Sequence record: OP114734.1 | Length of the DNA stretch: 64,000 bases | Strand: one strand, 5' to 3' | Origin: Escherichia phage vB_ESM-pEJ01 | Shown here: positions 37 through 54,473 of the stretch, one piece after another | Numbering within the stretch: the first letter of the stretch is position 1 | How the letters are laid out: each line of letters opens with the position of its first letter | Notes under the pieces: generated by a model | Databases searched by the model: none | Told to the model about the DNA's origin: nothing | The model's input: only the letters and a program-made list of their open reading frames with translations | Position numbers and translations under genes: made by a program

Positions 37-291
37 ATGACAGAAGACATTTTGTTAAAACTCTATGATCGTCTGGATAACGAATTGGCAACATTGCGGG
101 GTGAAGTTCTCTATTTGTCTAAATGCAATACAGATCTGCTTAAGCAGATTGCAGAAAGGGATGATCAAATAAAATCCCTTTCAGGTGCATTACGTGATCG
201 CGACAAGGCATTAGAGATTTTACAGCGTGTTACCAATAAGGAAGAATTAAAAGACTTCTTACATGGTTATGCTCATGCTATCGATCTATAA
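37..291 (+). CDS. hypothetical small protein (84 aa, predicted coiled coil)
   Basis: ATG preceded by GAGGA; heptad-like charged/leucine pattern; followed by hairpin terminator; no family recognised. Confidence 0.4.
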   Translation: MTEDILLKLYDRLDNELATLRGEVLYLSKCNTDLLKQIAERDDQIKSLSGALRDRDKALEILQRVTNKEELKDFLHGYAHAIDL

Positions 292-295
292 TAAA

Positions 296-325
296 AAAGC
301 CCGTCATTGACGGGCTTAATTTTTA
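296..325. terminator. bidirectional intrinsic terminator hairpin between convergent ORFs
   Basis: stem AGCCCG/CGGGCT with 7-nt loop, A-run before and T-run after. Confidence 0.6.
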
Positions 326-1351
326 ATATGTATCAGCTAATTTAATTATGTTATCAAGTTCCGTGATTGGTAAAGTTTCTGTGTATCCATCTTTCAACAT
401 GGATTTATCAACAACGCCACAATGATAAGTTCTCTTTATTTCCTTTTCAAGTTCCCACGGAATCCAGCCATCAACACTTTGTTTGACGTAAACAAGTTTG
501 TGAACAAACTTAGATTTCTGCATATGTTGTTTCATTCTGGTTTCCGGTAATTCATTGGTTACACCAAACTTTATAAATTTATCATCTAACGTCTGGATAT
601 AAAAATATCCCATCTCAGATGGACGATAGCCAGAAGAACTACATTTCGGACACCCTTTAGCATTTCTGTTGAACGTACAATATCTTACGGAAAATTCTGC
701 ATCATGTTTTGTACATTTAAGTTTTATCCATGAATTTGCAGTACCTATCCATTCACCATCGACACCTATATATTCATACCCTAACTTTTTACATTTATCT
801 TCTATTCTAGATAGTGCATCTTCCACGGGAACGACATATTCCATCTTAAATTGTTCAGCCGCGCATTTCTGACAACCACATGTACCATGATTTTTAAAAT
901 CAAAGAACTTTGTATTCTTCCAAATATGGTCATGTTTCTTGCATCTAAGAATCATCTTAGTAATTTGTGATTTCCACCCACCAACAAATCCCAAAAATTC
1001 ATAATCAAGATCTTTACATTTTTCTTCAATGAATTTGGTTGCTTCCTCTTCTGTCATAACTCCCCTACATTGAGGGCAACCAACAATAACCTTTTTAGCA
1101 TAGAAACTATTACTGGAAACATCATAGACAGATCCATGCTTATTGCATTGGATAACAGATCTAGTCAATTTTCCTTTCCATTCTCCAGAAAATCCTAAAA
1201 ATGTATGGTCGACAAGTTTACACCTCTCAATAACTTTGTCCGCAAATTCTCTAGGAGATTTTGTTACTTTGTTTACTCTGTATTCTATTTCTTCCGGTTG
1301 ACGAAGATCATAAACGTGGGGATTGCTCCCCACGGAATTAATATTAAGCAT
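323..1351 (-). CDS. putative nuclease-like protein with three Zn-ribbon repeats and C-terminal GIY-YIG/T5orf172-like motif
   Basis: three ~55-aa repeats (Y-E-F-L-G-F..G-E-W..C.K-H..G-C-P-x-C); C-terminus GYFYI...KFGVT...R..QH; start moved to ATG at 1351 (RBS GGAAGGA), overlapping gene 2 stop. Confidence 0.5.
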   Translation of the reverse strand: MLNINSVGSNPHVYDLRQPEEIEYRVNKVTKSPREFADKVIERCKLVDHTFLGFSGEWKGKLTRSVIQCNKHGSVYDVSSNSFYAKKVIVGCPQCRGVMTEEEATKFIEEKCKDLDYEFLGFVGGWKSQITKMILRCKKHDHIWKNTKFFDFKNHGTCGCQKCAAEQFKMEYVVPVEDALSRIEDKCKKLGYEYIGVDGEWIGTANSWIKLKCTKHDAEFSVRYCTFNRNAKGCPKCSSSGYRPSEMGYFYIQTLDDKFIKFGVTNELPETRMKQHMQKSKFVHKLVYVKQSVDGWIPWELEKEIKRTYHCGVVDKSMLKDGYTETLPITELDNIIKLADTY

Positions 1352-2165
1352 CCTTCCACACCTTCCTTGCATCATAGTTTTTACCTTTAGAAACAAATTT
1401 ATATGTGTTAAGGTAGATAATATTGCTCCAGTCTTTCGGGCTAATCTCAACAAGTTTTGTTTTAATGTGTCCCGGTAGATATGCTTTGATCATGTGATCA
1501 CTTCCACGCATACCTTTTACATCGCTCCATTTGATTTTTAAGCGTGTTTTATTGCTCAAGGTAGGCGTAGATGCATATTGCTTTAAAAGTGCTTCCAGAA
1601 ACTGCTGACGGGCTTTAGGCGTTACATAGTGTAAGTTAAGACCCAACATTACAGTATTACCCGCCTTTGTCTTAGAATCACCCAGACAAATGATCAGCGG
1701 GAAAACATCCCAATATGGCAAAGTGTCTTTATACTTCGCATCATACATAAAGGTATAGATTCGCCCTACTTGCGGTTTTACAATCTGGTGTCCCTTTATT
1801 CCTGCTTTTATTGTTTTAGTAAACCACTCCTGTGATTTTTCTTTAGGACGACTCTTTGATACAGCACGCATAGACGCACGAAAATCATTAATCATCATCA
1901 TTGCGCGTTGCTGCTTATTGAGACCCTTTGCGCCTTTCCCTTTTAGTTTTTCAACTTCTATTGCTGTTTTAATTTCGCTGGCATAACGAGACATACTTTT
2001 AGTGAAAGTCGCATAGGCTACTCCCTTAGAATCTGCAAATGCTTTAGCTGTCATACCTTTGGCTTTTGCTTTCGCAAATTCTACACCCAATTCGACCCAC
2101 TGTTTAGACTTTCGCTTTTGGGGAGACGGCTTTTCGTCTTCTGTGATTATTTCAAATACGCTCAT
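1344..2165 (-). CDS. 2: DNA end-protector protein gp2
   Basis: 273 aa, lysine-rich N-terminus; position and orientation match T4 genes 2-4-53-5. Confidence 0.8.
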   Translation of the reverse strand: MSVFEIITEDEKPSPQKRKSKQWVELGVEFAKAKAKGMTAKAFADSKGVAYATFTKSMSRYASEIKTAIEVEKLKGKGAKGLNKQQRAMMMINDFRASMRAVSKSRPKEKSQEWFTKTIKAGIKGHQIVKPQVGRIYTFMYDAKYKDTLPYWDVFPLIICLGDSKTKAGNTVMLGLNLHYVTPKARQQFLEALLKQYASTPTLSNKTRLKIKWSDVKGMRGSDHMIKAYLPGHIKTKLVEISPKDWSNIIYLNTYKFVSKGKNYDARKVWKDA

Positions 2166-49086: not shown

Positions 49087-49092
49087 TAAACG

Positions 49093-49120
49093 AAAGGCGG
49101 GGATAATCCCCGCCTTTTTA
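49093..49120. terminator. bidirectional terminator between gene 54 and the convergent lipoprotein gene
   Basis: hairpin AGGCGGGG-ATAAT-CCCCGCCT flanked by A-run and T-run. Confidence 0.65.
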
Positions 49121-49603
49121 TTTTGCTAAATCATTGCAATATTTTAGTGCCTTAGTTTGAAATTCTGAGCTGTTAAGTTCTTCATAACGGTCATAATCAC
49201 CGTTTAATGCTGCCTTTCTTGCTTCTTGCTCTATCTGCATGTCAGACATGATAATACAGCGATCCCGCGCTTTCATCTTCTCAAGTTGTATAGACTCTTC
49301 TTTCTGCTTGCGCAATTCTTCTTGACGCTTCTTTTCTTCTTGTGCTTTCTCTTCCCGCGCTTCTTTGATTGCCTCCTTGAACATCTGCGTTTGTGGTGCT
49401 AAACCAACTTTAACTCGATCTACGTCTCGACGTTCCATTTTAGAAATAAAGCATGATTCGATCTGATCATCACTTGCATATGCTGCTTTACATTCACGAA
49501 GCAAGAAAACCGGATCTGATTTAGCATTCATCATAGCTTCCATGTTGGCACAACCAGTAAGCATGAATGCAGCCGCAAGACCAATCAGTTTAATCATTTT
49601 CAT
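49118..49603 (-). CDS. putative lipoprotein
   Basis: N-terminal signal peptide with lipobox LTGC (MKMIKLIGLAAAFMLTGC); charged coiled-coil middle region. Confidence 0.6.
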   Translation of the reverse strand: MKMIKLIGLAAAFMLTGCANMEAMMNAKSDPVFLLRECKAAYASDDQIESCFISKMERRDVDRVKVGLAPQTQMFKEAIKEAREEKAQEEKKRQEELRKQKEESIQLEKMKARDRCIIMSDMQIEQEARKAALNGDYDRYEELNSSEFQTKALKYCNDLAK

Positions 49604-50424
49604 TTAGTCACCTCACCGAAAATTGTAAATTGTCTACGATTCTCATCGCCGAAAGATTCTACTACGTCGTTTACCTTGACGCAAGTCCCTCGCGGTAAAA
49701 TTACTTCACATTCGCAAGGGTTCCATGCAATTGACCCAACAACAAAACCTTTATGATCTTTTACGTCAATTACCCATGATACATTACAAGAATGTTGCAT
49801 CTTTCCGGTCATTGATTCATATCGATTCTCACAATAAAGGCTAGTGCTGTTTGATAGCCATCCTCCAAAGATGATCGGTGTCATGCTGGTAGATACAAAG
49901 TTTTTAAAGGTAAACTCCTTATCTTCAATGATACGCTCTATTGTCTGAATGTCAAGATGTTGACCTCGATAAAGAGTACCGTTTAACTTTTCGGTTTTAT
50001 CCATGACACAATCCATCAAATCAACAATCTCTGATATCTCATCGGTCATGTCTTCTTCCCCTAAGAGAGCACCATTTACCCATTCGTATTGTTCAGACAC
50101 ATAATCACAGATTGCATTATATTCTGCTGGGGTTATGTTGTTATGTTTGTAATGTTTGAATACATTATCTCCAAAGTCTTCGGAGTGTACTTCATACATC
50201 ACATTAATGATTTTCTTGACAAATCCATAATCTTGTGTCTCGCGCTCAAGGAAGCGGATAACCTTCACATAATCATCAAAGTTAATCTGATCGCTGATCA
50301 TCTCAGTGATCATGTAACCATTAATCCCCTCAATGTCATATGTTTCGATGTAATTATCCATACGTTCCATCATTGATTCGCGTGATTCTTCTGAAAGACG
50401 AAAATCCTGTAATTTCTTGAACAT
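49600..50424 (-). CDS. Alt-like ADP-ribosyltransferase paralog (short form)
   Basis: R-S-E triad: LYRGQ, FVSTS, CECEVILPRG; aligns with the C-terminal domain of the adjacent 683-aa Alt (YRG, KNYVSTS, IFGGW, ECEILLPRG). Confidence 0.7.
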   Translation of the reverse strand: MFKKLQDFRLSEESRESMMERMDNYIETYDIEGINGYMITEMISDQINFDDYVKVIRFLERETQDYGFVKKIINVMYEVHSEDFGDNVFKHYKHNNITPAEYNAICDYVSEQYEWVNGALLGEEDMTDEISEIVDLMDCVMDKTEKLNGTLYRGQHLDIQTIERIIEDKEFTFKNFVSTSMTPIIFGGWLSNSTSLYCENRYESMTGKMQHSCNVSWVIDVKDHKGFVVGSIAWNPCECEVILPRGTCVKVNDVVESFGDENRRQFTIFGEVTK

Positions 50425-50440
50425 TTTAAACCTCCCATAT

Positions 50441-50476
50441 AACAGAAAACGGGGCTAGTATAAAACTAGTCCCCGT
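50441..50476 (-). terminator. hairpin terminator after alt
   Basis: - strand hairpin ACGGGGACTAGT/ACTAGCCCCGT followed by UUUUCUGUU. Confidence 0.55.
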
Positions 50477-50485
50477 TTGAGTCAA
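50457..50485 (-). promoter_or_regulatory. putative promoter TTGACT-N17-TATACT overlapping the hairpin, upstream of the Alt-like gene
   Basis: same architecture as the PeSL-like units at 52-60 kb. Confidence 0.45.
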
Positions 50486-50502
50486 CCATTATTTCTTAAA
50501 AA

Positions 50503-52554
50503 TTACATTTTAAATTTATCTGGCATTGCGTCTACAGATACCAGATCAGCGATAAGCTGACGTAGAGTTGCCTTATCTGCTTTCTTACGTTCGGTTTTAG
50601 CTTCGCTAATGAAGCTGGAGAAAGACAGGTCAGAAGCAGGTTTAATAACACCTTCACGGATGAATGCATCACCGTCCGCGATCATCTCGCCAGATTCTTG
50701 TAATGCTGCCAGTTCATTTTTGTTCATAATATGTGCCTCAATGTAATAAGTTTCTTGTGAATCAGTCGATGCCGTGGCACTAGTTACCGTATCAAAGGAT
50801 AACACAACACCGCGAGGAAGTAAAATCTCGCATTCTTTGTAAGCAAATGCTTTGTTACCTACTGGCAATACAGGGATGTTTTCCGCGCCAGCAATGGAGA
50901 AAGCAACATTAGCGCCACCTTCACCGCGAGAGCCAGCCATAGAATCAACACCAGCAACGGCACTAGCCACGTTTGCATTCCAGCCGCCAAAAATGTTAGG
51001 TGCAAGGGAAGTGCTCACATAGTTTTTAAAGTAAAACGCTTTTTGCTTACGTGCAGTTTCCCACATTTGCGACCGGAAGTCCATACCACGATACAGAATA
51101 GTACCCGGATCAAGTTTAACGCCATAGTTGGAGAAGGCATTATCCAGTGCATCGCACATCTTGACCAATTCTTCTGGATCTGCGATGCCTTCAAACTCTT
51201 CCAGCTTACGGTCGGTTAGGAAGTTGTTCATATTGATGTATGCTGCATCGGCATATTCGCTCAACACAAAACCTTCCGCGCCTGGCAGATCAAGATCAAT
51301 ATCTGCCATCATTTCACCCATGTTGCTAGCAATTGCTTCAAACATACCGGACGCAACATTACGTAGGGCATCGGTTTTAATCTGGGTGATATGACTACGC
51401 AGCATTTCAGCTTTTACATCTGCTGGCATAGACTGGTCTACTCGATCCATTGCCAGGGCGGTGATCTTGTTTTCGAATACTTCCTCGCTCATGATTTCTT
51501 TTAAGCGTTTGACCGAGGCTGCGATAACTTCCGCAGACAACGGATCATATTGATCCTGAACTTTTACCAGTTCGCTTACTGCGTATTTTGCATCGGCTTC
51601 GCTTTCAAAAATAGTACGCATGAAACCATAGCGAGTGATAATATCACTTGTCCAGTCATTCAGAGAACGGGCGGTTGAACGTTCTAAGGCTTGACGGTCA
51701 ATCAGAGTATTAAACTGTTTCTTAGGTTCGGCTTCGGTGATATCTTCTTCCGGTTTAAGATTAATTTTTTCTGGATGATTCACATAGTCGCTGTTATAGG
51801 TCGCTTGAGTTTTCAGCATTTCTTCTTTAGTCAAACGAGATTTAGCCGCTACGCGTTGTTCCGCTTCCGCGTTTCGTTCTTCTTCTGACACAAGACTAGC
51901 CGCATACGCTTCATCTTTAGTCAGAGATTCACCGGTAGCCTTAGATACCCAGCGATCACCTAAATCACTTTCTACTTTAGTGAACAGGGAATCATCAAGT
52001 TTAATCCCTTTAATCTTATCAATCGCCATACCGCGACGCTTGACAACAACTAAAGCGATCTTTTTGCTGGTCATTACTTCCTGCTGGAATACTTCAAACT
52101 TCGGTGTACGACGCACCAAACGCTCTATAACGCGCTTAACCAGTTCGGTCTTACCTTTCATGCGGGATACGTTAAAACGGAACATAACAGCGTCTAATTG
52201 CGCTTTACGGGCTGTTTCCATAACCACATCAAAAGCACTTGCCATAACTGCAATCGGGTTATCACCTAGACCATTTTTAAGCTGTACAATACGACCGCTT
52301 TTGTTCATTTCGCACAGTACAACATGTGCGGTCTTGTCACCCATACGAATGATTTTAGGTGTTTTGTTGGTGAAGTTACAAAGACGGACAATCACATCTT
52401 TATCGCGTGTCTGTACTGCAAAAAGCTGTTTAGGATTCTGCTTAGGCTTTAAGCACTGTACCGGGGCAATACTACCAAAGTTTTCTTCCTCTTCCGTCAA
52501 CAGCCATTTCTCGAAAGATTCAATCATTAGATCGTCGATTTCTAAGTTAAACAT
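50503..52554 (-). CDS. alt: ADP-ribosyltransferase Alt
   Basis: 683 aa (T4 Alt 682 aa); C-terminal ART domain with ILYRG, YVSTS, ECEILLPRG; position between gene 54 and gene 30. Confidence 0.8.
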   Translation of the reverse strand: MFNLEIDDLMIESFEKWLLTEEEENFGSIAPVQCLKPKQNPKQLFAVQTRDKDVIVRLCNFTNKTPKIIRMGDKTAHVVLCEMNKSGRIVQLKNGLGDNPIAVMASAFDVVMETARKAQLDAVMFRFNVSRMKGKTELVKRVIERLVRRTPKFEVFQQEVMTSKKIALVVVKRRGMAIDKIKGIKLDDSLFTKVESDLGDRWVSKATGESLTKDEAYAASLVSEEERNAEAEQRVAAKSRLTKEEMLKTQATYNSDYVNHPEKINLKPEEDITEAEPKKQFNTLIDRQALERSTARSLNDWTSDIITRYGFMRTIFESEADAKYAVSELVKVQDQYDPLSAEVIAASVKRLKEIMSEEVFENKITALAMDRVDQSMPADVKAEMLRSHITQIKTDALRNVASGMFEAIASNMGEMMADIDLDLPGAEGFVLSEYADAAYINMNNFLTDRKLEEFEGIADPEELVKMCDALDNAFSNYGVKLDPGTILYRGMDFRSQMWETARKQKAFYFKNYVSTSLAPNIFGGWNANVASAVAGVDSMAGSRGEGGANVAFSIAGAENIPVLPVGNKAFAYKECEILLPRGVVLSFDTVTSATASTDSQETYYIEAHIMNKNELAALQESGEMIADGDAFIREGVIKPASDLSFSSFISEAKTERKKADKATLRQLIADLVSVDAMPDKFKM

Positions 52555-52597
52555 TTTATATCCTCTAGTTGATAACCTATAAACCTATATTTATGAA

Positions 52598-52620
52598 AAG
52601 GGGGCTTAACGCCCCCCTTT
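52598..52620 (-). terminator. hairpin terminator upstream of alt
   Basis: - strand hairpin GGGGGGCGUUAAGCCCCC followed by UUUU. Confidence 0.6.
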
Positions 52621-52621
52621 A

Positions 52622-52834
52622 TTATAATGCACCATCGAGCAATTGCTCTAATGTGTATCCTGAATAGTCTTTTTCAATCAGGATATATTTTCCTACTCGT
52701 TTAATACAACCGCGCATTTCAACGTATTCTGCGTAGTTGATGGTGCGAGTTGTTCCATCTTCTAGCAAAGCAGTACCGATTTCGTTAATGCGGTCATAAG
52801 TTACGTCGGTAATGATGATTTCGATGTTAGCCAT
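52622..52834 (-). CDS. hypothetical protein (70 aa)
   Basis: start moved to ATG at 52834 (RBS AAGGAG); N-terminus MANIE identical to the ORF at 54721. Confidence 0.55.
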   Translation of the reverse strand: MANIEIIITDVTYDRINEIGTALLEDGTTRTINYAEYVEMRGCIKRVGKYILIEKDYSGYTLEQLLDGAL

Positions 52835-52870
52835 TTGATACTCCTTAGTAGTTCGTTTCGGTATGTGTGC

Positions 52871-52900
52871 ATTATAGGGGATCACCGATCCCCCTGTCAA
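52871..52900 (-). promoter_or_regulatory. PeSL-like early promoter unit 1 (TTGACA-N18-TATAAT, palindromic spacer)
   Basis: - strand -35 at 52895-52900, -10 at 52871-52876; spacer GGGGATC...GATCCCC. Confidence 0.6.
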
Positions 52901-52907
52901 CAACTTT

Positions 52908-53426
52908 TTAGTTATTTTTTAATTGTTCATCTTGCAATAATGCAATCACATGCTGGCGATGCTCTTCTGATTGAGGCACACCAAAAAAGTTTGTTTTGTA
53001 GAAATACTCTAATCGGTCTTCTCGTGTGCTCTCTTCCATCATGATCGCGGGTAGTCCGAGATTTCGGAAACGTCGCTTTTCTGCTGGCGTAAAATCACTG
53101 TAATACAACATAGAATCATCATTACCAGCAATGCTAAACTCATCCTTCATGAAAGAGAATATTGCGTTTAAACGCTGTTTACCGTCCACGATTTCGATCT
53201 CATAGCGAGAGCCATCATCAATCTTAGCCATTGCGATAGAGCCTACCGGAAAATCATTAATCATGTTTTCGATAAACATACGTTTGTTTTCGGTGTCCCA
53301 TACCAAAGGACGCTGATAATCTGGGTTCATGTTGATATAGCCATCTTCTAACCATGCCTCATAAACAGAGATGACAAAGTTTTTAGTATTGGTATAGTAA
53401 CGGCGTTTAGGCGTTAAACGGTTCAT
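52908..53426 (-). CDS. DUF262 / ParB-like nuclease-domain protein
   Basis: motifs NPDYQRPLVWD and VDGKQRLNA (DGQQR-type); start moved to ATG at 53426 (RBS AGGAG), 1 nt after the upstream stop. Confidence 0.65.
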   Translation of the reverse strand: MNRLTPKRRYYTNTKNFVISVYEAWLEDGYINMNPDYQRPLVWDTENKRMFIENMINDFPVGSIAMAKIDDGSRYEIEIVDGKQRLNAIFSFMKDEFSIAGNDDSMLYYSDFTPAEKRRFRNLGLPAIMMEESTREDRLEYFYKTNFFGVPQSEEHRQHVIALLQDEQLKNN

Positions 53427-53427
53427 G

Positions 53428-53760
53428 TTATAGTCTCCTGAATGGATCATCACGTAAATCAATATCTTTTAAGAACTCATCCCATGAATGGCGGATATTA
53501 TTCTTAATTCTCCAGATAAGCGAAGGGATTGAACGCTCTCCCATCTGGAAGTATGGATCATATGATCCGTATGCCCAATATGCTACTACAATTCCGCAAT
53601 CAGTGCAATAGTATTCTATCTCGCTTGCTGGCGACCAAAGTCCATCAATATGATCACGGATCTTGCTTTCAATGTTATGACTATGGCAATCAGGGCAACG
53701 GATGCAATGACCTTGTTTGTCATAATTTGACGTTAGCGAATACTTAAACAATCTCATCAT
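53428..53760 (-). CDS. Zn-ribbon protein (110 aa)
   Basis: CIRCPDC...H and CTDCG cysteine pairs; start overlaps upstream stop by 4 nt. Confidence 0.6.
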   Translation of the reverse strand: MMRLFKYSLTSNYDKQGHCIRCPDCHSHNIESKIRDHIDGLWSPASEIEYYCTDCGIVVAYWAYGSYDPYFQMGERSIPSLIWRIKNNIRHSWDEFLKDIDLRDDPFRRL

Positions 53761-54473
53761 AGATCCTTATTGGCTTCAAATACTGCCTTTGCGAATCCTC
53801 GCGGGGTAAGTGACCTGATAGTCTTTGTTCTGGTTCCTTTCCCGCCTAGCTTAGAATGCTGTTTACTGTACCCTTTATTAATCGGCAACGGTTTCTTTTC
53901 TGGCATTATAAAGCCTTGTCCGGTCCATAAGCAAGTCTTTTTCGGGTACATATCACGGGCGGCAATATACTCAGGAAACGTAGGATGTATATCATCTTCC
54001 GGCAAATAACCGCCATATTCCCACGGGTGGAACATGTAATCAGGCTTACGCCACATGCTAGAGATAACGCTTACAGGATTCTCTATCATGTAGGGAACTC
54101 CTAGCCATTCACCCAAATAAGCGGTTATTTTAGCTGCCCGTACATCATGAACTTGAATCAACGGTCCTTGTTCTAGTTTCTTTCGTTCAAAGTGCGCAGC
54201 GCCACTAACAGCTAAATTGGTGCACGGTGGGAATGCAAAGATAATATCCGGTTTCCCCCATTCAAGGTCCATTGCTCTTTCCAGCCAGTTCAAATCAATC
54301 CAGGTGTTTACATAGGTAATGTTTTGATGTTCAAATCGGGTATTATATTTTTTGTATGTACCGTGGTCGCCATCGTCAGCATTAAAGCAGATCACCTTAT
54401 GACCTGCTTTAGCCCATTCTAACCCCATTATCCCCGATCCGTCAAAGTTGCAGAATATTAATTTTTGTTTCAC
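53757..54473 (-). CDS. compact DNA C5-cytosine methyltransferase-like protein (no large target-recognition domain)
   Basis: motif I FCNFDGSGIMG, motif IV FAFPPCTNLAVSGA (Pro-Cys), motif VI MIENPVS, motif IX-like IRSLTPRGFAKA in canonical order; GTG start overlapping upstream TGA. Confidence 0.65.
   Translation of the reverse strand: MKQKLIFCNFDGSGIMGLEWAKAGHKVICFNADDGDHGTYKKYNTRFEHQNITYVNTWIDLNWLERAMDLEWGKPDIIFAFPPCTNLAVSGAAHFERKKLEQGPLIQVHDVRAAKITAYLGEWLGVPYMIENPVSVISSMWRKPDYMFHPWEYGGYLPEDDIHPTFPEYIAARDMYPKKTCLWTGQGFIMPEKKPLPINKGYSKQHSKLGGKGTRTKTIRSLTPRGFAKAVFEANKDL

Follow-up and report, generated by a model that had tools for sequence, protein, structure and literature searches.

The window analyzed here, a stretch of 64,000 nucleotides from Escherichia phage vB_ESM-pEJ01 (sequence record OP114734.1), carries two adjacent minus-strand genes predicted to encode ADP-ribosyltransferases (ARTs): alt, whose product of 683 aa is of the Alt type, and a shorter gene, whose product of 274 aa is referred to as the short ART. 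Our analysis suggests that these two genes divide ADP-ribosylation between two stages of infection. Alt is probably synthesized late, packaged into the head and injected, and the short ART is probably made anew early in infection, with both genes held in a conserved cassette around a promoter and hairpin unit of the promoter-early stem-loop (PeSL) type. The evidence that carries this explanation consists of the integrity of the two genes, their family and fold, the alignment of their catalytic motifs, purifying selection, and the conservation of the cassette and its signals. The region shares 98–99% nucleotide identity with 58 RB49-type Krischvirus phages, including FL15, RB49, phi1, and GEC-3S, and by this similarity the window is assigned to an RB49-like (Krischvirus) T4-type phage.

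A sequence-only reading of the window had described the pair as one full-length and one truncated Alt-type ART, and both open reading frames (ORFs) were confirmed, on the minus strand (Table 1). The 683-aa protein matched PHROG 802, “Alt-like RNA polymerase ADP-ribosyltransferase,” from end to end (residues 16–683; E value, 1.4e-179) and Pfam PF03496 (ADPrib_exo_Tox) at residues 425–610 (37.6 bits; E value, 1.9e-9). The curated gathering score of PF03496 is 23.4 bits, and both ARTs scored above it. Compared with T4 Alt, the protein showed 27% identity over 695 columns (E value, 9e-61), with residues 31–681 aligned to T4 residues 15–679. Among 61 full-length Alt homologues, which were drawn from an exhaustive search of 1.84 billion representatives, the columns Y434, D471, R489, S514, E574, E576, R581, and G582 were invariant. 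The AlphaFold2 (AF2) model, with a predicted local distance difference test (pLDDT) score of 82.7, was composed of an N-terminal alpha/beta domain (~30–205), a helical region (~213–420), the ART module (~397–618), and C-terminal helices. The 683-aa protein is the orthologue of T4 Alt.

The short ART matched PF03496 at residues 82–266 (59.3 bits; E value, 4.3e-16) and PHROG 15144, “ADP-ribosyltransferase” (E value, 2.6e-198). None of the NCBIfam models covered Alt, the short ART, or the lipoprotein-like protein encoded next to it. The AF2 model of the short ART (pLDDT, 92.5; predicted template modelling score, 0.89) consisted of a helical N-terminal part (residues 1 to ~95) and an ART core. In comparison with 27 homologues, Y108, R153, and S178 were invariant, and N117, L120, E238, and E240 were at least 90% conserved. 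The short ART matched residues 413–593 of T4 Alt with 31% identity over 181 residues (E value, 8e-23), which is a closer match than that to its own neighboring Alt, with which it shares 37% identity over 109 residues only.

The catalytic strings quoted by the sequence-only reading were all present, namely ILYRG (R489), YVSTS (S514-T515-S516), and ECEILLPRG (E574-C-E576) in Alt and LYRGQ (R153), FVSTS (S178-T179-S180), and CECEVILPRG (E238-C-E240) in the short ORF. These triads go beyond chance, as judged from the PF03496 and PHROG scores and from the coincidence of the motif residues with invariant or near-invariant columns of both families. Single-sequence phmmer searches against the sequences of the PDB gave only marginal matches for the short ART (E values, 0.07–0.5) and none for Alt; therefore, a family profile was used. 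The profile of the short family matched Vis (E value, 5e-24), CdtA (8e-21), and iota Ia (1e-20), as well as VIP2 and Tre1. The catalytic Arg in “tlYRg” of the profile, which corresponds to the invariant R153 and R489, was placed opposite AYRG of Vis and VYR of CdtA and iota Ia. FVSTS (178–180) and YVSTS (514–516) were placed opposite FTSTS of Vis and FISTS of CdtA and Ia, and the E-x-E motif of the ADP-ribosylating toxin turn-turn (ARTT) loop (E238/E240 and E574/E576) opposite EAEV of Vis and EYEV of Ia and CdtA, with “EcEviLpRg” of the profile lying on EAEVLF/EYEVLL.

A Foldseek search against the PDB returned only ARTs of the C3, Vis, iota, CDT, C2, Certhrax, or Plx2A type among the top 50 matches of the short ART (E values, 1e-10 to 1e-8; probability, 1.0), including C3bot, CDTa, iota Ia, and C2-I. 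The alignment of the triads with known active sites had been named beforehand as the test that could refute the assignment, and YRG, STS, and ExE were found to align with Vis, CdtA, and iota Ia in a matching fold; this correspondence with solved toxins is one of profile alignment and shared fold, not of coordinate superposition. These results support the assignment of both proteins to the Alt/VIP2-type R-S-E ARTs, and both look functional. According to established knowledge of the family, ExE rather than QxE suggests arginine specificity for both ARTs. The stretch ahead of ExE reads FAYKECE in Alt and AWNPCECE in the short ART, and the insert between STS and ExE also differs. These differences are compatible with, but do not demonstrate, different substrates.

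The relationship between the two proteins was resolved by hhalign, which aligned residues 69–274 of the short ART to residues 397–618 of Alt (probability, 100%; E value, 3.3e-55). The short ART is composed of its own helical N-terminal extension of ~68 residues and the ART module, and lacks both the N-terminal domains of Alt and its C-terminal ~65 residues, in agreement with the earlier claim that most of the long N-terminal region is missing. Eight short proteins of 264–288 aa formed one clade with 100% bootstrap support in a neighbor-joining (NJ) tree of the ART module, lying outside the separate clade of Krischvirus-type Alts, which also had 100% support; deeper nodes among the Alt clades were below 60%. 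The short type fell into approximately five clusters at 50% identity in the search of the 1.84 billion representatives, in which the other matches were mostly Alt-like proteins of 600–710 aa. Homologues down to ~28–33% identity (P0011) retained the length of 264–288 aa, the fold-defining residues, and the triad. When compared with RB49, the short gene showed dN (nonsynonymous substitution rate) of 0 at dS (synonymous substitution rate) of 0.10, and dN/dS was 0.106 against the 83%-identical homologue of the relative contig L017. A recent truncation of the neighboring alt was rejected on the basis of the 37% identity over 109 residues and the separate clade. Taken together, the short gene belongs to an old, separately evolving family under purifying selection. 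The earlier term “truncated” would suggest a recent or degenerate copy, which the short gene is not.

It could be argued that the short ORF is a functionless, decaying remnant of a tandem alt duplication, similar to alt.-1 and alt.-2 of T4. Tandem duplications recur at the alt locus, as seen in RB68, JS98, and T4 (alt.-1/alt.-2), and RB49ORF183c was grouped with these duplications by Nolan et al. (2006; PMC1524935). However, the dN/dS value, on which a pseudogene remnant was rejected, the absence of nonsynonymous changes relative to RB49, the confident AF2 fold, the own promoter and strong ribosome-binding site, and the retention of the position in seven contigs of divergent relatives are all at odds with decay. 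The R-S-ExE residues are likewise intact, and remain invariant or near-invariant down to ~28–33% identity. A decaying remnant is extremely improbable, and the selection and conservation data have effectively refuted it.

PeSL cassettes have been described in RB49 and phi1 (Arbiol et al., 2010; PMC2839356). The claim that the short paralog has its own promoter-hairpin unit proved to be correct: a TTGACT–17 nt–TATACT promoter and a hairpin ending in TTTT lie between alt and the short ART (Table 1). Read on the minus strand, the order is TAATTTTTAAGAAATAATGG-TTGACT-CAAACGGGGACTAGTTT-TATACT-AGCCCCGTTTTCTG...GGGAGG-N6-ATG, in which TAATTTTTAAGAAATAATGG is an AT-rich tract read directly upstream of the promoter. 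The promoter is of the sigma-70 type with 10/12 consensus matches and a 17-nt spacer, and a promoter is annotated at this PeSL in the GEC-3S record. The unit contains every PeSL component as defined previously (PMC2839356). It recurs with intact hexamers in the relatives L006, L011, L014, L017, and L018, and two stem pairs show compensatory changes (C-G, A-U, or U-A at column 17/31 and U-A or C-G at column 18/30). In the stem, 98% of cells were paired, compared with 32–52% when the partner columns were slid. In L012, the promoter is kept (TTGACA/TAGAAT), and the hairpin that it encloses is unrelated in sequence (-22.9 kcal/mol; z, -5.1). Terminator and strong promoter activity have been demonstrated experimentally for other PeSLs, 211/210 and 206/205 (PMC2839356). 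Because it is conserved across lineages, the PeSL behaves as a fixed regulatory element and possibly as a recombination site.

A distinct set of signals was found upstream of alt. The intrinsic terminator at this site reads GGGGGGC-GTTAA-GCCCCC-TTTT; it was also matched by a scan on the opposite strand (52600–52616) and is annotated as a terminator in GEC-3S, and L006 likewise has a hairpin and a T-run upstream of alt. The terminator is followed by an ATAAATA element resembling a T4 late promoter. Only two minus-strand copies of ATAAATA occur in the ~15-kb block of minus-strand genes, one of them being the copy ahead of alt. At the same place ahead of alt, L006 has its terminator and AATAAATA, and L012 has TCTAAATA. 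The first position of the consensus is variable in the late promoters of RB49 (PMC1524935). Farther upstream, a second PeSL (52871–52900, minus strand) was observed, with a perfect sigma-70 promoter (TTGACA-18-TATAAT; 12/12 matches) and a spacer that is almost wholly a GC hairpin (GGGGGATC-GGT-GATCCCC). It precedes a 93-aa ORF (52622–52903, minus strand), the true start of which is probably the ATG at 52834.

The sequence-only reading had suggested that the short paralog may be expressed at a different time. This is supported by inference from the sequence, namely by the early promoter of the PeSL on the one hand and the terminator with ATAAATA on the other, both of which are present in divergent relatives. 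The conserved cassette runs, on the minus strand, from terminator, late-type promoter, and alt through PeSL, short ART, and lipoprotein-like gene to a bidirectional terminator and gene 54. In T4, alt is a late gene with its product in the virion, and ModA and ModB are early proteins (PMC9697503); approximately 40 copies of Alt reside in the scaffolding core, and a small N-terminal peptide is removed by the gp21 protease (PMC9958956). Because of this analogy, we infer that alt of the window is late and its product packaged. The terminator would isolate alt from upstream early transcription, and Alt would be synthesized late, packaged into the head via its N-terminal region, and injected with the DNA for immediate modification of host proteins. 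An N-terminal L-x-E-V-F-D is strongly conserved in the Alt family, and (L/I)xE was found in 58/63 Alt homologues, in agreement with the (L/I)xE specificity of the T4 prohead protease.

For the short ART, in turn, unmodified host RNA polymerase would initiate at the PeSL promoter in the first minutes of infection, yielding a soluble, newly made early enzyme. Read-through transcripts from alt would hold both arms of the PeSL hairpin and stop at the T-run, whereas transcripts initiated at the PeSL would start inside the 3′ arm and escape termination. Such a split would parallel that between injected Alt and early ModA/ModB in T4, reached with an Alt-family domain and not with a Mod homologue. This division of labor is, in our judgment, the probable explanation of the locus as a whole.

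Several points weigh against it. The candidate late promoter, CATAAATA, starts with C and otherwise agrees with the T4 consensus, TATAAATA (7/8 bases); across the window, ATAAATA shows no enrichment (21 found and 23 expected). The N-terminus of the window Alt itself is degenerate, reading L-M-I-E-S-F-E with M-I-E in place of the family L-x-E-V-F-D. The covariation of the PeSL hairpin is based on five sequences. The hairpin may also only attenuate, and late read-through from alt could then express the short ART as well. The searched literature yielded no data on expression, packaging, or activity of Krischvirus ARTs, and no Krischvirus virion proteomics was found by literature search. In addition, 6/8 members of the short family have (L/I)xE among their first 16 residues, compared with a background of 12–18%.

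The last point bears on a rival explanation, in which the short ART is also packaged into the head, processed by the protease, and injected as a second effector, being an Alt copy without the internal domains that kept its N-terminal targeting/cleavage peptide. The PeSL promoter and alt read-through would then supply the protein before prohead assembly. Three of the six members with the motif read (L/I)xEV, echoing the L-x-E-V-F-D of the Alt family, and the N-termini of the two paralogs are alike within a phage (MFNLEIDDLMIE and MFKKLQDFRLSE in the window; MFDPQLLE and MFNANIKE in L006). T4 gp21 takes small N-terminal peptides off both Alt and internal proteins (PMC9958956). However, this is a short motif in a set of related sequences, and no conservation extends past xE. 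The short ART also lacks the conserved N-terminal alpha/beta domain of Alt, and its only recognizable promoter is of the sigma-70 type and sits behind a terminator hairpin. Neither the window nor the ~57 kb of RB49 that were searched had annotated internal-protein genes or yielded internal-protein-like targeting peptides for comparison. An ad hoc targeting-peptide pattern applied to the same sequences matched only MFKKLQDFRLSE of the short ART, which gives no support either way; the T4 targeting peptide compared with it was MKTYQEFIAE. Packaging of the short ART is thus considered unlikely, and early synthesis from the PeSL remains the preferred explanation.

The cassette as a whole is conserved. 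Seven contigs of divergent relatives carry a member of the short family, and the long Alt gene precedes it in 7/7. The short proteins share 83% identity with that of the window in L017 (P0002), 63% in L018 (P0003), 48% in L014 (P0004), 44% in L006 (P0005), 45% in L011 (P0006), and ~30% in L012 and L013 (P0011), the last two being full-length contigs of ~168 kb. In all six contigs that extend further (all but L014), the short gene is followed by an ORF of 159–170 aa and then by a convergent gene. The latter was identified as gp54 by a Pfam match in L006, L012, and L013 and by BLASTN to gene 54 of the window in L017 and L018.

In the window, the ORF following the short gene encodes 161 aa, and its start overlaps the stop of the short ART (ATGA). 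Because of this overlap, the two genes are expected to be co-transcribed, and the 161-aa ORF is probably translationally coupled to the short ART. In addition to the lipobox, its product has four further conserved Cys residues and a charged coiled-coil middle. Its homologues occupy the corresponding position in L006, L011, and L012 (E values, 1e-10 to 6e-30), and genes of similar length are also called after the short ART in L017 and L018. In a four-sequence alignment, the G-C core of the lipobox (L/M-T/F-G-C) and the four further Cys were invariant; therefore, the 161-aa protein is predicted to be an exported lipoprotein. A homologue in phage W115 is annotated as “putative lipoprotein.” For the hairpin between this gene and gene 54, the GEC-3S record lists a terminator on each strand, and the hairpin is predicted to end the short ART operon.

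Comparison with L017 revealed a mosaic pattern. Nucleotide identity between L017 and the window was ~93% in alt, ~70% in the N-terminal half of the short ART, ~88% in its catalytic half, 44–67% in the lipoprotein gene, and ~89% in gene 54. The corresponding protein identities were 98% for Alt, 83% for the short ART, and 34% for the lipoprotein. A sharp drop begins just past the PeSL between alt and the short ART, and across positions 49100–52300 of the window, identity changes in sharp steps at the PeSL and at either boundary of the lipoprotein gene. This pattern indicates recombination or strongly uneven evolutionary rates within 3 kb. It also suggests rapid evolution of the lipoprotein and, within the short ART, of the helical N-terminal half. 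PeSLs are known to mediate module shuffling, and the mosaic fits such PeSL-associated modular exchange (PMC2839356).

These observations raise the question of whether the short ART and the lipoprotein-like gene are a functional pair exchanged as a PeSL-bounded cassette, with an ART target other than RNA polymerase; the two could be a toxin and its partner, or an exclusion or counter-defense module. The ATGA overlap, the strict pairing in the six contigs that reach past the short gene, the fall in identity just after the PeSL in L017, and the shuffling mediated by PeSLs (PMC2839356) are consistent with this idea, and the targets of T4 Alt are not limited to the polymerase but include, for example, MazF (cited in PMC9697503). 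On the other hand, export and disulfide bonding are predicted for the lipoprotein, whereas the ART has no signal peptide, which makes direct neutralization unlikely; neither protein carries a family or defense annotation; and unrelated small genes are commonly co-transcribed in the early regions of T4-type phages. We regard such a functional pair as very unlikely. A combined explanation deserves somewhat more, although still tentative, consideration: the short ART and the lipoprotein would form a PeSL-bounded, exchanged module for takeover or counter-defense, in which the fast-changing helical N-terminal half would redirect the conserved ART core to substrates different from those of packaged Alt. 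Retargeting could result in modification of the alpha subunit of RNA polymerase in place of the missing second Mod, or in the disabling of a host defense or toxin protein. As a variant of this combined explanation, the short ART could itself be packaged via its Alt-like (L/I)xE peptide, giving two injected ARTs. The coordinates of all features are listed in Table 1.

Table 1. Coordinates and properties of the features identified at the ART locus (positions in the window; a dot marks a feature without strand)
Feature	Position	Strand	Basis or detail
Bidirectional terminator hairpin, lipoprotein gene / convergent gene 54	49092..49118	.	Fold -19.6 kcal/mol; z -5.4
Lipoprotein-like ORF, 161 aa	49118..49603	-	PHROG 16112 (unknown function); predicted signal peptide and lipobox LTGC
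Short Alt-family ADP-ribosyltransferase, 274 aa	49600..50424	-	ORF, Pfam, PHROG, AF2, Foldseek, dN/dS
Short ART, E238-x-E240	49705-49713	-	Motif position
Short ART, S178-T-S180	49885-49893	-	Motif position
Short ART, R153	49966-49968	-	Motif position
Shine-Dalgarno GGGAGG	50431..50436	-	6 nt ahead of short ART start codon (50424-50422); read directly
PeSL cassette between alt and short ART	50446..50500	-	-35 TTGACT 50485-50480; -10 TATACT 50462-50457
PeSL hairpin over spacer and -10, ends TTTT	50447-50478	-	13-bp bulged stem; -20 kcal/mol; z -3.5
alt, full-length Alt-type ADP-ribosyltransferase, 683 aa	50503..52554	-	ORF, PHROG 802, T4 Alt similarity, AF2
Alt ART catalytic module, residues 397-618	50701..51366	-	Pfam PF03496 at residues 425-610, invariant residues, hhalign
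Alt, E574-x-E576	50827-50835	-	Motif position
Alt, S514-T-S516	51007-51015	-	Motif position
Alt, R489	51088-51090	-	Motif position
Late-promoter-like ATAAATA, CATAAATA	52588..52594	-	T4 consensus TATAAATA; 33 nt ahead of alt start codon
Intrinsic terminator upstream of alt, AAAGGGGGGC-GTTAA-GCCCCCTTTT	52596..52620	-	RNA fold -17.7 kcal/mol

The ART pair itself is already known, having been annotated since 2003 and in print since 2006. The locus is 98.5% identical to that of RB49 at the nucleotide level, and the short ART protein is 100% identical to RB49p183, which is annotated in GenBank/RefSeq as [quoted passage not shown] Many Krischvirus records carry the ADP-ribosyltransferase label for both genes. 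RB49ORF183c was listed as a paralogous alt duplication (Nolan et al., 2006; PMC1524935), and a survey of viral NAD/ADP-ribose proteins includes Alt/VIP2-family ARTs in T4-like contexts (PMC9503650). Genes 48 and 54 (baseplate/tail-tube; PHROG 230 and 45) lie on the plus strand and converge on the minus-strand ART block, and this gp48/gp54 neighborhood is syntenic with RB49. The additions made here, namely the old, selected short family, the conserved three-gene cassette with its signals, and the regional mosaicism, are incremental. For genome annotation, the pair is of little consequence: RefSeq already names both genes, and the paralogy has been in print since 2006. What the pair lacks is experimental work, not recognition.

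Phage ARTs are central to host takeover, with T4 Alt, ModA, and ModB serving as models; ModB also links RNA chains to host proteins (RNAylation). A natural pair of Alt and an ART-module-only protein could separate the roles of the other domains in packaging or targeting from that of the catalytic core. The pair would also show ADP-ribosylation split between injected and newly made enzymes in a T4-type phage with one Mod-type gene, compared with two in T4.

Other differences from RB49 and further genes were observed in the window. RB49p186, a module of ~248 bp with its own promoter (RB49 L001 6834–7152), is absent at ~52904–52910. It is present in most relatives and also absent from OZ035808, Cognac, ECD7, and KFS-EC, representing a presence/absence polymorphism of a PeSL-flanked ORFan as in Arbiol et al. 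(2010). A ~1.05-kb insertion relative to RB49 was found at ~292–1343, between the RB49p130 homologue (37–291, plus strand) and gene 2 (1344–2165, minus strand), which are 30 bp apart in RB49. The inserted ORF (323–1375, minus strand; ~350 aa) contains two CapR homology domains (Pfam PF21817; E value, 6e-15), and its C-terminus (GYFYIQT...KFGVT) resembles, by eye, a nuclease of the GIY-YIG or T5orf172 type. The ORF may be a mobile gene similar to those of homing endonucleases. A 184-aa ORF (52908–53462, minus strand) has only the GmrSD_N/DUF262 domain (Pfam PF03235; E value, 3.9e-20) without the DUF1524 nuclease half, and is thus a phage-borne fragment of a family otherwise known from host restriction enzymes inhibited by T4 IPI*. 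A 238-aa ORF (53757–54473, minus strand) is the counterpart of RB49p189 (“DNA methyltransferase”) and gave no Pfam match at E ≤ 0.01. It adjoins a 110-aa Cys-rich ORF (53428–53760, minus strand) with a weak zinc-ribbon match (PF08271; E value, 3e-4) that is below the cut-off.

Among known systems, the closest is RB49, in which alt (RB49p184) and RB49p183 (ORF183c), matching PHROG 802 and 15144, occupy the same locus. There is no substantive difference at the ART pair, and the window differs in lacking the small PeSL-flanked RB49p186 further upstream. In the PeSLs of RB49 and phi1, the stem-loop is most commonly located between the promoter boxes or over the -10 box (PMC2839356), and that of the window overlaps the -10 box, one of these two arrangements. 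Unlike generic PeSLs, the copy described here is kept in position and structure where the flanking proteins are only ~45% identical. T4 Alt (gpAlt, 682 aa) is collinear with the 683-aa protein over its full length, lies at the same location beside genes 48 and 54, and has the same placement of the ART domain, with late-promoter-like signals upstream of alt in the window as well, but the two proteins are highly diverged. The C3-like and binary-toxin R-S-E ARTs (Vis, C3bot, iota Ia, CDTa, VIP2, and Tre1) share the fold and YRG/STS/ExE with the phage ARTs. They differ in being secreted bacterial toxins with other delivery domains, and their sequence identity with the phage ARTs is 13–20%.

ModA and ModB of T4, which are early, non-packaged proteins of ~200 aa, resemble the short ART in its proposed mode, in small size without the Alt N-terminal domains, and, as early proteins, in its position behind an early sigma-70 promoter. 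Of the comparison with T4 Alt, ModA, and ModB recommended by the sequence-only reading, the part concerning Alt was borne out for both ARTs, but the short ART has no similarity to the Mod proteins. A ModA/ModB-like identity was rejected because BLASTP against ModA and ModB gave no hit with E < 1, and the short ART differs from them as a protein of the Alt/VIP2 family with the canonical STS motif. A Mod-type gene is encoded elsewhere in Krischvirus (RB49p014; 33% identity to ModB). A single Mod-type match per record was found in each of three Krischvirus records listed, whereas many other T-even-type records listed have two Mod-matching places each, and T4 has modA and modB. By these comparisons, Krischvirus encodes at least three ARTs, as T4 does, but an Alt-family domain stands in for one of the two Mods.

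Duplication at the same locus is also known from alt/alt.-2 of RB68, the two alt genes of JS98, alt.-1/alt.-2 of T4, and ORF187c/188c of 44RR, where the second copy lies immediately downstream of alt and ahead of gene 54, as in the window. RB68 (L009 650–4804) and JS98 (L010 2933–7147) each carry two abutting full-length alt genes, and these paired alts of T-even phages fall into two clades, each with 99–100% bootstrap support. In T4 (L004 5066–7503), the second copy is reduced to the N-terminal fragments alt.-1 and alt.-2 of a duplicated 5′ end. The alt locus thus appears to be a recurrent site of duplication and decay. The tandem copies elsewhere are either full length (685–708 aa, abutting alt) or N-terminal fragments. 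Unlike these copies, the short ART is a stable ART-module protein with its own promoter and its own clade.

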